A stretch of 59,998 bases of DNA from an uncultured Candidatus Saccharibacteria bacterium (GTDB lineage Bacteria > Patescibacteriota > Minisyncoccia > Phycocordibacterales > UBA9973): NCBI GenBank assembly GCA_964361705.1, contig CAYIBP010000004.1, positions 1 through 59,998 of the forward strand, written 5' to 3'. The notes beneath the pieces were generated by a model, which was given only the letters and a program-made list of their open reading frames with translations, made no database searches and was not told where the DNA came from. Positions 19,325-43,500 of the stretch are shown in pieces (positions within the stretch are counted from its first letter, which is position 1; each line of letters begins with the position of its first letter). A program made the translations under genes and the position numbers.

Positions 19325-21082
19325 ATGCAGATAGATGAGGGTCAGTTAAAAAAAGTTCTATTGTATTCAAAACTCATATCTCGAGAAGATCTGGAGACTC
19401 TGTCAGAAAAAGCGAAAAGTAAAAACCAAAAACTTGGCAATTTGCTGTTGTCTGAAGGCAAGATATCTGAGGTGGATCTCGCGCGTATGGAGGCATTTGT
19501 TTTAGGCATACCCTTTATAAATCTGGCAGACAAAAAGATAGAACCGGCGGTATTATCTTTGATTCCCGAGCCTATAGCTCGCAATCACAATATTATCGCT
19601 TATGAAAAAAGTAAACTTGGGCTTGAAGTTGCGATGCTTGATGTAGACGATCTCCCTATAATTGATTTTATAAAGAAAGGTTCTGGCACAAAAATATTGC
19701 CTCGTCTCACAGATAGTGTTTCCATAAAGTATGCCTTGACTCAATATAGGAAAAGTTTACAGGCGGATTTTGATAATATAATTAAAAAAGAAGCAGCCAC
19801 TTTAAAAGCATCTACAAATAAAGAAAGCAAAGAAACAGAAAAAACTGAAGAAGAATTGAAAGCGATGGCAGAGGATTTGCCTGTGATCAAAATAGTTGAT
19901 TCGCTTATTTCCCATGCCATATTGCAGAATGCTTCAGATATTCATGTAGAGCCCAGCGCAGAGAATCTCATAGTGAGGTATCGCATAGATGGCATACTGC
20001 ATGACGCCATGATTCTTGATAAAAGTATTGCGCCGGGAATCACTACACGCATAAAAGTTTTGTCCAATCTAAAACTTGATGAAAAAAGACTTCCGCAAGA
20101 TGGCAGATTTAAAATAGAGCAAAATGGTGAAAAAGTTTCTTTTCGCGTATCCACTTTGCCGACTTTTTACGGAGAAAAAACAGTGATCAGAGTTCTTAAA
20201 GAAGATTCGCACGGTTTTTCTTTGGAGACACTTGGTTTTCATGGGGAGGGGCTAGAAAGAATTCATGATTCACTAAAGCAAAAGATAGGTATGATACTTG
20301 CCACTGGCCCCACGGGTTCTGGCAAGACCACGACTCTTTACACGATGCTTGATATTTTGAACAAGCCAGAGGTAAACATTTCTACCGTTGAAGATCCGAT
20401 CGAATATCAGATGCAGAGGGTAAATCAAACTCAAGTGAAATCAGAAATAGGACTTACTTTTGCAAACGGACTTCGTTCTCTTCTTCGTCAAGACCCAGAT
20501 ATTATAATGGTAGGAGAGGTTCGCGATGGAGAAACTGCTAGCCTTGCCATAAATGCCGCTCTAACGGGTCATCTTGTACTTTCTACTATTCATACGAATT
20601 CTGCGGCAGGGGCAATACCAAGATTGATGGACATGGGAGTTATGCCTTTTTTGATGATTTCAACTTTAAAAACAATTATCGCGCAAAGACTTGTACGCCA
20701 GCTTGTTGAAAATAAAGAAAAATACACCCTATCTAAAGACGAAATAAAGAACCTTGGAAAGCTAGTGGATCTCGATAGAATGCTTACAATTTTGAAAAAT
20801 GAAAAAATTGTGGAGGAGTCTATTACTTGGGATAAAATTTCATTTTACAAGCCAGTCAAAAGTTCTGAATATCCAGATGGATATTCAAATCGCATAGGTA
20901 TTCATGAAGTTTTGAAAGTGACTTCTTCAATAAAAGAAATGATTATTCGAGGGAGTTCGCAAGACGAGATCGAAGTTCAAGCCAAGAAAGAGGGGATGAT
21001 GACCATACTTGAAGATGGAGTGTTTCAGGCTGTTTTAGGGCATACTTCTTTAGAAGAAGTGCTCCGTGTTGTGTCGGAATAG
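19325..21082 (+). CDS. pilB: Type IV pilus assembly ATPase (PilB/GspE family)
   Basis: ASDIHVEP, RLPQDGR, Walker A GPTGSGKT, LRQDPDIIMVGEVRD and TGHLVLSTIHTN. Confidence 0.93.
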   Translation: MQIDEGQLKKVLLYSKLISREDLETLSEKAKSKNQKLGNLLLSEGKISEVDLARMEAFVLGIPFINLADKKIEPAVLSLIPEPIARNHNIIAYEKSKLGLEVAMLDVDDLPIIDFIKKGSGTKILPRLTDSVSIKYALTQYRKSLQADFDNIIKKEAATLKASTNKESKETEKTEEELKAMAEDLPVIKIVDSLISHAILQNASDIHVEPSAENLIVRYRIDGILHDAMILDKSIAPGITTRIKVLSNLKLDEKRLPQDGRFKIEQNGEKVSFRVSTLPTFYGEKTVIRVLKEDSHGFSLETLGFHGEGLERIHDSLKQKIGMILATGPTGSGKTTTLYTMLDILNKPEVNISTVEDPIEYQMQRVNQTQVKSEIGLTFANGLRSLLRQDPDIIMVGEVRDGETASLAINAALTGHLVLSTIHTNSAAGAIPRLMDMGVMPFLMISTLKTIIAQRLVRQLVENKEKYTLSKDEIKNLGKLVDLDRMLTILKNEKIVEESITWDKISFYKPVKSSEYPDGYSNRIGIHEVLKVTSSIKEMIIRGSSQDEIEVQAKKEGMMTILEDGVFQAVLGHTSLEEVLRVVSE

Positions 21083-38815: not shown

Positions 38816-38844
38816 TTGACAAGACATTCTCTGTATGCTATACT
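38816..38844 (+). promoter_or_regulatory. Strong sigma70 promoter
   Basis: TTGACA, 17 bp, TGc-TATACT. Confidence 0.8.
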
Positions 38845-38974
38845 ATAAAAGTAAGTTAATTTTGTACCTTAAAAATTGTGGTTTTGACGAAAAAGTGTTT
38901 ATTTGTAAGGTTAAATGAATCTTTTTTCGTCTAAATCACACAGTTTCTTATCACATAACTCCAAAGGAGGAGCT

Positions 38975-39112
38975 ATGGGTTTTATCGTTGGAGTACTGGC
39001 ATTCCTTACGGTTTCGTATCTTTTCCCTGAAGCTCATCTTCTCCTTCGTTGCTTGGGGGGGCTTGGGCTTGGAGCCGTAGTAACTATTGCTGTGAAAGAA
39101 TTTCAAAAGTAA
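38975..39112 (+). CDS. Small hydrophobic protein (45 aa, two predicted TM segments)
   Basis: AAAGGAGGAGCT-ATG start, its own promoter and terminator, and higher GC than the flanks. Confidence 0.65.
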   Translation: MGFIVGVLAFLTVSYLFPEAHLLLRCLGGLGLGAVVTIAVKEFQK

Positions 39113-39174: not shown

Positions 39175-39200
39175 ATTTATAGGAGGAATTTTTCTAGTTT

Positions 39201-40187
39201 ACTTTGAATTACGAAACTCCACAAGACCACTTTTCCCCAACCAAGCAAAATAACCTCAAGAGTCCTTGATTTTTAAAACGGAAGTTTAATTTTTCTTGTT
39301 AACAACTTTCTCTACCTAAGCACATAGGCGAGAATCGAATAAATGTAATTAGCAAAGTAACCATCAATAGATCTGGGAAACGAGGTTAGAAAAGCGTACA
39401 GCATTTTCAGATTTCTGAAGTTCAACTCAATCAGCATTCTGGTATTGTAGAGATGATACTGGAACTCAGTAATGATTTTCTTCATATTCTTTCTTGGCTT
39501 AGCAAACAGAATTCTTTTGTTTTCAATGTAGAATTCTTTTTCTAAATTTTCTGAAGAATATCCTGCGTCAGCCACAAATATACCATCAATATTTTTGTTC
39601 ATCTTCTGGAATGTTTTTCGATCATTCCCATTTGCAGAAGTAAATGAAATAGCTAAAACATTGCGATTTAAATCAGAGGTCAATGACATTTTAAGCCCAT
39701 AATAGAAGCCTTTTCCTGAATGTCCCCAAGAAGAGAGCATTTTCATAATTTTGTTGTGTCTGAAATTTTTGTTCAGACAAACCGGAATATCGGTGGAGTC
39801 GGTGTATTTAACTATATGAGCATTTTTCTGATTCCATTTTAGAATTGCGTTTAAGACCCTAAGCGCTTGCAATGCAAATCGATTCATCTGAATACAAAGT
39901 GTCTTGTAACATTCCTTAAGTTGGAATATCTCCCAGATTTTTTTCTTGGTGGGGATGCCAGTATTTTGTTTGAAGAGAGCGAGCGCGATTGTTTCTTCTC
40001 CAGAGATTGCCAATTTTCGACCAGTGCTTTTGCTTAATTTCAGTTGTAATTGTTTTGAGAAAAATTGAACTTTTGTTAATATGTCAGTATACAGTTGAAT
40101 GACTGTGTTCATAACAAAAAGCACCTCACGGCGCTTTTTGTATTTTAACCTATTTTAATTGAAAAGTGGAGTTTCGTAATTCAAAGT
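39201..40187 (-). mobile_element. Insertion sequence, IS982-like (987 bp)
   Basis: Perfect 22-bp terminal IRs ACTTTGAATTACGAAACTCCAC (39201-39222 and 40166-40187). Flanking direct repeat AGTTT, or TAGTTTA if the ends are drawn 1 bp inward. Confidence 0.88.
39312..40112 (-). CDS. DDE transposase, IS982-like
   Basis: DSTDIPVC, G.YYGLK, ADAGY and Y..R..IE..F..LK motifs; GAGGTG upstream of ATG 40112. Confidence 0.85.
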   Translation of the reverse strand: MNTVIQLYTDILTKVQFFSKQLQLKLSKSTGRKLAISGEETIALALFKQNTGIPTKKKIWEIFQLKECYKTLCIQMNRFALQALRVLNAILKWNQKNAHIVKYTDSTDIPVCLNKNFRHNKIMKMLSSWGHSGKGFYYGLKMSLTSDLNRNVLAISFTSANGNDRKTFQKMNKNIDGIFVADAGYSSENLEKEFYIENKRILFAKPRKNMKKIITEFQYHLYNTRMLIELNFRNLKMLYAFLTSFPRSIDGYFANYIYSILAYVLR

Positions 40188-40225
40188 AGTTTACTTTTCC
40201 ATATTTTTTAGTATTATATAAACAT

Positions 40226-40445
40226 AAGCGTTGAAGAGGCTATCACCTCAGAGCTTTTGGGAAGAAATACTTTGTTGATATAGCCCGCCTGCGCGCGAGG
40301 CTACGGCGAGGTAAAGTAGAACCCTATGAATTAAGTGTCTGCCCAGCGCAAGTTGGTTTGGGCGGAAATTAAGGTGGTACCGCGGGAGAGTCCCGTCCTT
40401 AGATAGTAATTTTTTAATTATTATTTTAGGACGGGATTTTTTATT
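40226..40445 (+). ncRNA. T-box riboswitch leader of ileS (Ile AUC specifier)
   Basis: GAGG-CUAUCA-CCUC mini stem I; GGAAGAA/AGUAGAACC stem II elements; AAGG-UGGUACC-GCGGGA antiterminator (40371-40400); alternative terminator at 40391-40436 plus U-run. Confidence 0.9.
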
Positions 40446-40523
40446 TATCAATTTGACCTTTCCCCTCTCCTTTGGGGAGGGGAAAGGGGTGGGGTGTATT
40501 GTAAGGAATATATTTTAAAACAC

Positions 40524-43500
40524 ATGCAAGAAAAAGAAGAAAACCACCGCCAAGGCGGGGTGAACACAAAATCAGAAGTAGCTCTGAGGGAAGAAAAGAT
40601 TATGTATTTTTGGCGCGAGCATAAGACTTTTGAAAAAAGTTTGGAAAAGGATTCGCCAAAGGGCAATTATGTTTTTTATGATGGACCGCCTTTTGCCACG
40701 GGACAGATGCATTATGGGCATATATTGGGCAGTACTGCCAAGGATGTCATCGGGCGGTATCAGACGATGCGTGGATATCATGTGCCTCGCAAGTGGGGTT
40801 GGGATTGTCATGGTTTGCCGATAGAAAATATTGTAGAGAAAGAGCTCGGCATCGCAGGACACAATGAGATAGAAAAATACGGCATAGACAAATTCGTGGA
40901 GTATGCGCGGAGCAAAGTTTTGGAATACGATGCGGATTGGCGAGTGGGCATAGAGCGCATAGGCAGATGGGTAGATTTTGATGGTGGGTACAAGACGATG
41001 GACAATGATTTCATTGAGTCTGTGTGGTGGGCGCTCGCGGAATTAAATAAAAAAGGTTTGATATACGAGGGCGTGCGAGTGCTGGCGTATTGCGCGAGAT
41101 GCGAGACGCCGATAGCAAACTCCGAAATAGCGATGGACAACAGCTACAAAGACATCGCTGATATTTCTGTGTATGTGAAGTTTGAGTTGGAAGATGAGTT
41201 TGGTACAGAAAGTCCCTCGCTTCGCTCGGGACGATCAAATACTTCGTATTTGATCGCGTGGACCACAACGCCGTGGACATTGCCGGGCAATACTGCCATA
41301 GCGGTGAATAAAGATATTGAATATGTGAAAGTGGAAGCTGATGGGGTGAATTATATTTTGGCAGAAGCAACATTAGGAAATGTTTTTAAAGAAAAAAGTT
41401 TCAAAATTTTGGAAAAATTCAAAGGTGATAAACTTGTCGGCAGAAAATACAAGCCGGTTTTTCCATATTATCTGGATGCCGACATGCCGAACAAAGAAAA
41501 TATTTACAAAGTCTGGCATGCGGATTTTGTGACGACAGATATGGGTACAGGGATAGCGCACGAGGCGCCGGCTTTTGGCGAAGACGATATGAACCTCGCT
41601 CGAGAACACAAAATACCTTGGATCATACATGTGGACGAGACGGGCAGATTTAAAAGCGAAGTAAAAGATTTCTCAGGTCTCAAAGTAAAACCAAAGGACA
41701 CTGCTGAAGACAAAGACATGCATCTGCGCTCTGATATAGAGGTCATAAAATATTTACAGGCAAATGGATCGTATTTTGCCAAAGAAAAAATAACACACTC
41801 ATATCCGCATTGTATGCGTTGTGATACGCCGATCATTTACTACGCGCTTCCGTCTTGGTTTGTGGATATACAAAAATCAAAACCGATAGTGCAAAAAACT
41901 GCCGAATTTATAAATTGGGTACCGGAGCACTTGAAAGAGGGCAGATATAAAAATATTGTAGATAGCGCGCCAGACTGGAATATCTCGCGCAATAGATATT
42001 GGGCTTCGCCTTTGCCTGTGTGGAAGTGTGACACTTGCGACAATCAAGAATTTATAAGCTCTCTGGAAGACTTAAAAGAAAAATCCGTAAAATCCGGCAA
42101 CAAATATTTCGTGATGCGACATGGGGAATCTGAAGGAAATATAACAGGCGTAATTAGTTCATACTCTGAGCACACAGATCATTTAACAGAATTGGGCAAG
42201 AAACAAGTATTTGAAACATCGCAAAAGTTAAAAGATAAAAATATAAATTTGATTATTTATTCTGATTTGGCTCGAACAAGAGAAACCGCCGAGATAATAA
42301 AAAAGGAACTCGGTATTCTGGATGAGAATTTTATTTCAACTAAAAAAATTAGGGAAATTTCCACTGGAGTTTGGGACGGAAAAAGATGGACTGAATATGT
42401 TGCTTTTATAAAGAACGAGGGAATGCAGAGGTATCTTTATCGCCCAGACAATGGTGAATCGGGAGAAGATGTAAAAGCCAGGATGGCTAGGTTTCTTTAT
42501 GAAATAGATAGCGAATATAGAGATAAAAATATTCTGATAATAACTCACGAAGGTCCAGCTAGGATACTTTATGTAGGTGCTCTCGGTTTGAGCTCTTCTC
42601 AAATGGAGGAGAAATTAAATAATAAAGAGATAATCGTTTTTAAAAATGCGGAAGTTAATGGGTTGAATTTTGTCCCATTTCCCCACAATGCAAACTTTGA
42701 GCTTGATATGCACAGGCCATATATAGACGCTGTAAAATTAAAATGTAAATGCGGTGGTGAGATGACGCGTATCACGGAGGTTTTGGATTGTTGGTTTGAG
42801 TCAGGGTCTATGACTTTTGCGGAGGATCATTATCCTTTTGAGAGTGCTGACTGGCAAGAAAAGAATTTCCCAGCTGGATTCGTGGCGGAATACATAGCGC
42901 AGACTCGTACGTGGTTTTATTATATGCATGTTGTTTCGGCTCTGCTTTTCAATCACGCGCCGTTTAAAAATGTCGTGACCACAGGCACCCTTCGCGCTGA
43001 AGACGGACAAAAGATGTCCAAGTCCAAGCACAATTATCCTGATCCGTGGGTTTTCATAGACAAATACGGCGTGGATGCTTTGCGTATATATCTGATGTCT
43101 TCACCACTGATGAAAGGCGAAGATGCGAATTTCTCTGAAAAGCTCGTGCAGGAAATATCTAGTAAGATTGTCGGCAGATTTCACAACACGATGCTTTTTT
43201 ATGAATTGTATCGAGATAAAAATCTAGAAGATGTTTTTGAAAAAGATTTAAAAAATGTTTTGAACAAATGGATAGTCGGCAGACTCGATGAAGTGATAAC
43301 AGAAGTGACAAAAGGCATGGAAGCGTACGATATGGCGATGGCTACTAGGCCGCTTGATCTGTTTGTGGACGATCTCTCTACTTGGTATTTGCGTAGATCA
43401 CGTGATGCCATCAAAGATGGTGATAAAGAAACAAAACAAACACTGTATTTCGTACTAAAAACTTTTGCCAGACTGATGGCTCCATTTGCGCCGTTTATAG

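Follow-up and report, generated by a model that had tools for sequence, protein, structure and literature searches.

Can a T-box with an ultrashort Stem I act on transcription? The question is raised by a leader RNA upstream of ileS, the gene of isoleucyl-tRNA synthetase (IleRS), in a 59,998-nucleotide stretch of contig CAYIBP010000004.1 from an uncultured member of the Patescibacteria; the whole of this stretch, about 60 kb, is called the window below. Transcriptional T-boxes are said to need a platform that binds the tRNA elbow, for capture of the tRNA before the terminator, while translational ones do not (PMC7583486, section 6.2). An earlier description made from the letters alone, here called the sequence-only reading, had seen in this leader a hybrid of ultrashort Stem I and terminator, the ultrashort Stem I being the actinobacterial ileS type that controls translation by Shine-Dalgarno sequestration, and terminator-type T-boxes having a long Stem I. 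This background agrees with reviews and recent papers, in which T-boxes with short or ultrashort Stem I are translational, specific to ileS and mostly actinobacterial. The hybrid stands: about 100 distinct leaders have kept it, and all of its helices covary. What that description missed was the kink-turn (K-turn), the loss of the Stem IIA/B pseudoknot and the wide spread of the leader. We conclude that the leader is a real T-box and that, judging from its sequence and its relatives, it probably is a tRNA-Ile-sensing riboswitch controlling ileS by transcription attenuation.

The Rfam T-box model, RF00230, aligns end to end with positions 40222-40403 (57.4 bits, E 5.5e-12); a comparison with this model had been proposed by the sequence-only reading. 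In the alignment 6 nt replace 76 positions of the Stem I model, and the posteriors are near 1 in the K-turn, Stem III and the antiterminator. Three general marks of a T-box are there: a UGGN bulge in the antiterminator, a codon matching the regulated gene and a predicted K-turn (GA motif) at the base of Stem I.

To obtain the coordinates of the elements we read the region 39900-40700 base by base, see Table 1. The helix of Stem I has only 4 bp, GAGG (40236-39) with CCUC (40246-49), and carries the hexaloop CUAUCA (40240-45). Both the stem and the position of its AUC are as the sequence-only reading had given them. Directly 3' of the specifier is a conserved purine, A40245. Under Stem I the K-turn is intact, as predicted from the alignment to the RF00230 K-turn: bulge GUU 40230-32, GA 40233-34 and GA 40251-52. 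The basal helix, AAGC (40226-29) with GCUU (40253-56), is also of 4 bp and covaries among relatives.

In Stem II the lower helix is formed by GGG 40259-61 and CCC 40322-24, which covary, and the upper helix by 40268-74 and 40307-13. Above the GGG/CCC helix lie the S-turn strands AAGAA (40262-66) and AGUAGAA (40315-21); the GAA/AGUA assignment of the S-turn is taken from the Rfam consensus and the literature. The motif GGGAAGAA...GUAGAACCC hardly varies among the compact leaders nearest to the window, and shows slight variation further out. Stem III is missing in many relatives, and the whole sensor is then 108-110 nt long, for instance in L040 (109 nt), L096, L135 and L136.

The antiterminator is canonical, and it is found where the sequence-only reading had described it. 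Helix A1 pairs AAGG (40371-74) with CCUU (40397-400), the bulge is UGGUACC (40375-81), and helix A2 pairs GCGGGA (40382-87) with UCCCGU (40391-96) around the loop GAG. Helices A1 and A2 both covary in relatives, and the folding energy of the antiterminator is -11.0 kcal/mol. Its 3' strand also begins a hairpin of 46 nt (40391-40436) that is followed by six U (40437-42). For this hairpin 21 bp had been claimed; the hairpin and the U-run are there, the count is rather 20 pairs and one 1x1 mismatch. The hairpin has a folding energy of -25.6 kcal/mol (z = -8.2 against shuffles), which makes it 14 kcal/mol more stable than the antiterminator. Since the strand 40391-40400 is shared, terminator and antiterminator are mutually exclusive. 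The ileS ATG (40524) lies 81 nt past the U-run, in line with the roughly 80 nt noted before; in relatives the distance is about 10-40 nt.

How widespread is this architecture? A first survey covered 80 species-level Patescibacteria ileS loci, 74 of them with usable upstream sequence; a survey of this kind was another check that had been suggested. A strict T-box motif lies just upstream of ileS in 28 of the 80 loci, in the same layout throughout. From 15 compact leaders we built a covariance model, R1, with 117 positions and 21 hand-assigned pairs. In the window R1 has one match in 60 kb, at 78 bits. Upstream of ileS it finds the leader in 29 of the 74 usable loci (two of the matches are weak), again with the same layout. 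The remaining 45, including the closest genome relative (L001), have no T-box: ileS follows the preceding gene, in many cases argS, at 40-70 nt, an interval that holds only a promoter. Because so many ileS loci, L001 among them, are without it, we take the leader to have been gained and lost often.

A second set came from metagenome contigs, scanned with a pattern in which only Stem II and the T-box were fixed and Stem I could be anything; this gave 104 stretches. R1 matched each of the 73 non-duplicate loci searched, exactly once (L081 and L082 included). With alignments fitted to R1, a procedure that favours pairing, 94.8% of the cells form a standard pair in the genome set and 94.9% in the second, mostly metagenomic set; slid controls are at most 57% paired. 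Changes on both sides are seen in 18 of the 21 pairs in the genome set and 14 of the 21 in the second, and the observed covariation values were reached by none of 500 shuffles in either set. For the modelled pairs of Stem I alone the numbers are 7 of 7 and 5 of 7. Neither Stem I nor helix A2 was constrained when the second set was chosen, and covariation is still seen in both there.

Counting the window, there are 100 distinct leaders. Of these, 97 have a hairpin, with a folding energy of -8 kcal/mol or lower (median -25), that overlaps the antiterminator's 3' strand and has 4-8 U after it. The exceptions are one leader at a contig end, one match with wrong bounds and one weak case. When anchored on CCUU, the pairs of the terminator change on both sides as well: U-A/C-G at two positions and, further out, G-C/A-U/G-U and U-A/A-U/C-G. 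Between the terminator hairpin and the AUG no conserved sequence is seen across the leaders. By this comparison the window leader is a member of a populous, unannotated family in Patescibacteria.

A translational switch of the known kind would have to hide a Shine-Dalgarno (SD) sequence. The sequence-only reading placed the window in a largely SD-less lineage, and this holds: an SD-like core (GGAG, GAGG or AGGA, 4-20 nt before the start) precedes 3 of the 54 long open reading frames (ORFs) in the window, against a background of 9.8% at random positions. Ahead of ATG 40524 there is no SD-like motif at about 5-10 nt, and the sole candidate, AAGGAA, lies 16 nt upstream. The ileS starts of relatives show no SD by eye. 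The genome is essentially without use of SD sequences, so SD sequestration is unavailable and a sequestrator helix would have no target.

Taken together, these features suggest the following mechanism. Transcription would start just upstream of 40226, and the nascent RNA would form the K-turn and the 4-bp Stem I, with AUC exposed in the apical loop. The S-turn of Stem II, beside Stem I, would clamp the helix between codon and anticodon of tRNA-Ile(GAU), as in the solved actinobacterial ileS complexes. If the tRNA is uncharged, its 3' ACCA would pair with UGGU 40375-78 and hold the weak antiterminator, and the polymerase would read into ileS. If it is charged or absent, 40391-40400 would join the more stable hairpin, and transcription would stop at the U-run. 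The sequences show the anatomy, its conservation and covariation, the two exclusive folds and the lack of SD; from these we infer that the tRNA binds, that its charging matters and that transcription terminates. Attenuation is favoured because the codon fits the gene: AUC with IleRS here, and GUC with ValRS (valyl-tRNA synthetase) and GAC with AspRS (aspartyl-tRNA synthetase) in the sister leaders described below.

Several observations weigh against attenuation by this leader. The tRNA-elbow platform (the interdigitated T-loop motif, IDTM) is missing. The Stem IIA/B pseudoknot is not present either, a 13-nt linker being found at that site, and this absence makes the tRNA affinity of the window copy uncertain; a search by eye for an alternative pseudoknot of the linker 40325-37 saw no complementarity. 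There are no tRNA genes in the 60-kb window, and the fetched loci hold only genes for Arg, Val, Ser and one tRNA-Ile(UAU) with discriminator A, which leaves no tRNA-Ile(GAU) gene in either for a check of anticodon and discriminator. A simple terminator scan of the window did not list the hairpin 40391-40436; the probable cause is the mismatch within it and the AU-rich inner part of its stem. The hairpin does come up in RNAfold and in the comparison of relatives. Further downstream, ahead of the AUG, lies a second hairpin, 40457-87 (-27.1 kcal/mol, z -3.3), with no U-run after either strand. On the upstream side, 40188 is the last position of the terminal repeat of an insertion sequence (IS), and the putative -35 box is 2 nt away. 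Finally, the RF00230 score is below the 93-bit gathering cut-off.

The low score could mean that the T-box resemblance is fortuitous and that the region is an ordinary 5' untranslated region with a hairpin. We give this practically no chance. What brings the score under the cut-off is the lack of the 76-nt distal Stem I. At gathering thresholds Rfam has no matches in the whole window nor in 15 related loci; a standard scan of the window comes out empty because the match is below the gathering score, and only reporting by E-value reveals the T-box. A chance origin is refuted by the comparative data: the E-value holds over the full model, and there are about 100 homologous leaders with covariation and with concordance between codon and gene. 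Nor do we think that the window copy is a decaying or silenced relic, blind to tRNA, whose hairpin is a constitutive attenuator or is simply read through. The IS next to the promoter, the missing pseudoknot and the ease with which T-boxes are lost in this lineage (see the 45 loci above) would agree with such a relic. However, the conserved positions are all intact, namely the GA pairs of the K-turn, the NNAUCA loop, the S-turn strands, the UGGUACC bulge and A1/A2. The pseudoknot-less form is common to many species and still covaries, and a constitutive terminator of -25 kcal/mol before an essential single-copy ileS would face strong counter-selection. A relic is in our view very improbable.

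Somewhat less remote, and still unlikely, is a functional T-box whose hairpin and U-tract act post-transcriptionally, either on an SD-independent landing site (an AU- or U-rich standby region) or on mRNA decay. The leader would then be a translational T-box of the ultrashort kind, fitted to a host that lacks SD sequences. Translational control is what the literature associates with short Stem I, and in relatives the U-run is only about 10-40 nt before the AUG. On two SD-bearing, GC-richer contigs (L119 and L151) a terminator-like hairpin with a U-run in fact buries AGGAG(G) just before the ileS AUG. In these, sequestrator and terminator can coincide, which we read as one structural element that is tuned differently; both are candidate dual transcriptional/translational switches. 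In the window, however, the AUG is 81 nt downstream and behind a second hairpin, and direct occlusion is unlikely. A stable, GC-clamped stem with 4-8 U immediately after it is what marks an intrinsic terminator, and 97 of 100 leaders have one; no other constraint on the U-run is obvious. The lack of conserved sequence between hairpin and AUG also speaks against a post-transcriptional site. Transcription attenuation of ileS is the reading that we retain.

Where does the leader stand among known T-boxes? Four classes are distinguished (PMC10482949). In class III, Stem I is short, the specifier lies in an apical loop of five or six nucleotides, and Stem II is required; classes III and IV "mostly" regulate translation initiation. 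A 2023 preprint with Henkin as co-author describes the ultrashort class as translational and every member as regulating ileS. The T-box database TBDB labels leaders with truncated Stem I "class II = translational" and sought them in Actinobacteria, and other papers likewise equate a short stem with translational control. Full-text literature searches combining T-box with Patescibacteria, candidate phyla radiation or Parcubacteria returned nothing; Sherwood 2015 and Vitreschak 2008 stand outside this comparison.

The decoder resembles that of the class III ileS T-boxes of Actinobacteria (M. tuberculosis, M. smegmatis and N. farcinica; 6UFG and 6UFM, see PMC7583486). From its sequence the window leader has the short Stem I lacking the double T-loop platform, the Ile codon in an apical hexaloop followed by a purine, and an adjoining Stem II with S-turn. 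Stem III, the UGGN discriminator and the ileS target are shared too, and so are lineage-specific insertions in Stem II/III and helix A2, which occur among the relatives. In contrast to class III, the window leader has a predicted intrinsic terminator in place of the helix that hides the SD, it lacks the Stem IIA/B pseudoknot, and it has an extra conserved GC-rich module in Stem II. The SD-less host from Patescibacteria is a further difference, and sister leaders carry Val, Asp or Asn codons, in a class described as ileS-only.

With class I (the B. subtilis tyrS type, RF00230) the leader shares the K-turn, the Stem II S-turn, Stem III, the T-box sequence, and a mutually exclusive antiterminator and terminator with U-run. 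It would also be off by default, as in class I, the terminator being much more stable. The competing terminator with U-run that marks classes I and II is thus predicted here, and their long Stem I with distal interdigitated T-loops is absent. Unlike class I, about 76 nt of Stem I are gone (the internal loop of the specifier, the AG bulge and the elbow-stacking distal T-loops), the specifier is apical, and there is no pseudoknot in the window leader. The class II glyQS leaders of B. subtilis and G. kaustophilus are likewise naturally minimised transcriptional T-boxes with whole domains dropped. In Stem I and Stem II, however, the reduction is the reverse: glyQS retains the long Stem I and has lost Stem II and IIA/B, whereas in the window leader the distal part of Stem I is gone and Stem II is still there.

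Class IV (Actinomyces odontolyticus ileS) has an intermediate Stem I and a specifier in a side bulge, and close relatives of the window resemble it in having a hairpin 5' of the specifier in the Stem I loop. Such a junction is found in L081, whose IleRS is 81% identical, and in L094, L111, L132, L150, L154 and L158. The window leader differs by its plain hexaloop, and the class IV-like relatives also end in terminators. The window RNA is best described as combining the decoder of class III with a terminator platform in the style of class I; the phylum is new for it, and the pseudoknot is missing.

The pseudoknot itself (CGGGNNNGCCCGUNAUAGC, CGGG-N4-CCCG-UNAUAGC) is present in L003, L010, L025, L034, L047, L052, L058, L073 and L080, among others. 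These carriers are more distant relatives, and the nearer ones have, like the window, a short linker and no Stem IIA/B. From this distribution we read the pseudoknot as lost in the subgroup to which the window belongs. The peripheral elements change rapidly: in L081 there is no GC-rich module, the bulge is UGGUAUC, and the hairpin mentioned above sits inside the Stem I loop.

Sister leaders with other codons were found as well. In the Stem-I-free metagenome scan, GUC loops (UUAGUCA and CUAGUCA) precede ValRS in L131 and L135. A GAC loop (CUGACA) precedes AspRS in L085, with Patescibacteria, Falkowbacteria and Parcubacteria as the nearest named homologues. GAC or AAC loops precede a DUF1653 gene in L101 and L159; in L101 the next gene has an OB-fold anticodon-binding domain and its product is probably a class IIb synthetase, and the contig of L159 ends before any gene past DUF1653. 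In L114 an AAC loop precedes an ORF that has no Pfam match, and L095 has a T-box with ultrashort Stem I on the same chassis and a non-Ile specifier. All five of the non-Ile leaders inspected (L085, L101, L114, L131, L135) have a terminator made of a hairpin and a U-run. Leaders for Val, Asp and Asn codons on the same chassis contradict the "ileS-only" description of the ultrashort class.

A generalisation that we hold with slightly more doubt than belief is that Patescibacteria use one stripped-down T-box chassis (K-turn, 4-bp Stem I, apical codon and Stem II S-turn) as a co-transcriptional switch for several synthetase operons (Ile, Val and Asp/Asn). The chassis is often without the pseudoknot and even without Stem III, down to about 108-110 nt before the terminator. 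If the generalisation is true, contact with the tRNA elbow would not be required for kinetic, transcription-coupled sensing of tRNA charging, and the ultrashort class would be neither ileS-specific nor inherently translational. A large covarying family that joins a short decoder to an intrinsic terminator, in organisms to which SD sequestration is not open, is a direct test of the kinetic rule for Stem I length, and it is relevant to riboswitch specialists because the accepted rationale for this length is kinetic. Its members are the smallest natural T-box scaffolds on which structural and synthetic studies could build, and with them the short-stem class comes to include Val, Asp and Asn codons. 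For annotation it means that the Rfam gathering cut-off overlooks tRNA-sensing leaders of a major uncultivated bacterial radiation. What is new is the short-stem decoder with a terminator and no pseudoknot, and several amino-acid specificities in sisters; it is no new category of regulation. Sherwood 2015 is said to have predicted only "many" of the atypical leaders to be translational, and ultrashort ones with terminators may already be listed there. If many of them are, the novelty is reduced to the lineage, the missing pseudoknot and the members with other codons than Ile.

Table 1. Coordinates of the leader, its parts and the neighbouring features in the window.
Feature	Positions	Strand	Basis or remark
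IS element, 989 bp	39200-40188		perfect 23-nt terminal inverted repeats 39200-22, 40166-88
DDE transposase inside the IS element	39312-40124	-	
Promoter-like site: -35 TTTACT 40190-95, 16-nt spacer, -10 TATTAT 40212-17	40190..40217	+	consensus scan
T-box leader for tRNA-Ile, upstream of ileS	40226-40442	+	
Stem I domain	40226..40256	+	Rfam alignment, model R1
Specifier codon AUC (Ile)	40242..40244	+	downstream IleRS; NNAUCA-type loop in most of 100 leaders
Stem II	40257..40326	+	conserved motif, lower-helix covariation
GC-rich apical module of Stem II, CGCC-UGCG...CUAC-GGCG-A-GG	40284..40311	+	recurs in relatives
Single-stranded linker UAUGAAUUAAGUG	40325..40337	+	comparison with pseudoknot-bearing relatives
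Stem III, 8 bp 40338-45 / 40359-66, 13-nt loop	40338..40366	+	Rfam alignment, minimum free energy fold
Antiterminator (discriminator)	40371..40400	+	Rfam posterior near 1.0, covariation
Intrinsic-terminator-like hairpin and U6	40391..40442	+	folding energy, conservation in leaders
Perfect 14-bp GC-rich hairpin, CCUUUCCCCUCUCC-UUU-GGGGAGGGGAAAGG	40457..40487	+	between terminator and ileS start
ileS, 1184 aa	40524..44078	+	Pfam, NCBIfam, PDB

The GC-rich element in Stem II had been taken for a palindrome-like insert. The element is real; it is a sequence-conserved module, and it recurs in five other species with the consensus CGCC-UNYG...CUAC-GGCG-A-G(A/G). It sits at the tip of Stem II in L003, L022, L054 and L057 and in Stem III in L012. 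RNAalifold folds it into a 4-bp CGCC/GGCG helix, a bulged A and then 2 bp, with one covarying pair only; the fold is weakly supported because its helix is invariant. A T-loop, a UNCG tetraloop and a K-turn were considered and rejected, for the pyrimidine at position 5, the wrong closing pairs and the lack of GA after the bulge. The module might be a substitute tRNA contact.

A transcript from the putative promoter would, on the positions of its boxes, begin a few nucleotides before the T-box. Relatives have boxes resembling TTGCAA and TGnTATAAT at a similar distance ahead of AUAAGCG. In L081 there is no IS at the equivalent site.

Between terminator and ileS, the 14-bp hairpin has a single copy in the window, and the first 80 ileS loci have none. 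Unrelated perfect hairpins are found at the equivalent position in relatives, for example in L019, L086, L160, L084 and L081. The hairpin is probably not part of the switch. It contains GGAGG, and was considered as an SD sequestrator for a GTG start at 40494; this was rejected, as the N-termini of relatives favour ATG 40524 and the hairpin is unique.

Some relatives have other insertions here. A conserved element of about 100 nt with a long hairpin lies in the interval from the T-box terminator to the ileS AUG in L013, L088, L091, L099, L109, L120, L126, L128, L132, L141, L142 and L150, with a second copy elsewhere in L128. Its layout is ACUUCACAAAUUAUAUUCU...GUCCUCGG-[variable hairpin]-GCCAGACAUUUUU...AAAAUAAUUUGUUUCG, with compensatory changes in the outer stem. 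It corresponds to no Rfam family at gathering score and is not found in the window; we take it for a structured RNA or else for a miniature mobile element. In L016 (1610-1912) and L103 the T-box is followed first by a membrane protein of about 90 residues (M..KTI..LG.LGT..AI.MFV.LLEIA), in L016 then by ileS; this protein may be a co-regulated transporter.

The product of ileS is an isoleucyl-tRNA synthetase (TIGR00392, 828 bits), and its start at ATG 40524 agrees with the N-termini of relatives, M-E/Q-E-K. The enzyme had been called type 2, and NCBIfam and PDB comparisons confirm this: it is MupA/MupB-like, its top solved relatives are 8c8u, the eukaryotic cytoplasmic IleRS and T. thermophilus 1ile, and the type 1 IleRS of S. 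aureus (1ffy) scores far lower. All its homologues are from Patescibacteria, with the labels Nomurabacteria, Paceibacteria or Parcubacteria. Within the protein lies a His_Phos_1 (histidine-phosphatase, RHG motif) domain, at residues 529-703 (window 42108-42632). The insert is present in all 120 best IleRS homologues (Paceibacteria/Nomurabacteria), in some with an HD domain added, and a literature search gave no paper on it.

Many start codons in the window lie 5-10 nt past TATAAT-like boxes, for example at 19325, 29089, 31617 (minus strand), 33734 and 38222. This suggests that leaderless or near-leaderless mRNAs are widespread in the window. A conserved non-coding leader is also shared between 38818-39112 and L081 (730-1100): it has the promoter TTGACA-17-TATACT, followed by the conserved hairpin UUUGACGAAAAAG/CUUUUUUCGUC, and precedes a small membrane ORF of 45 aa (38976-39112).

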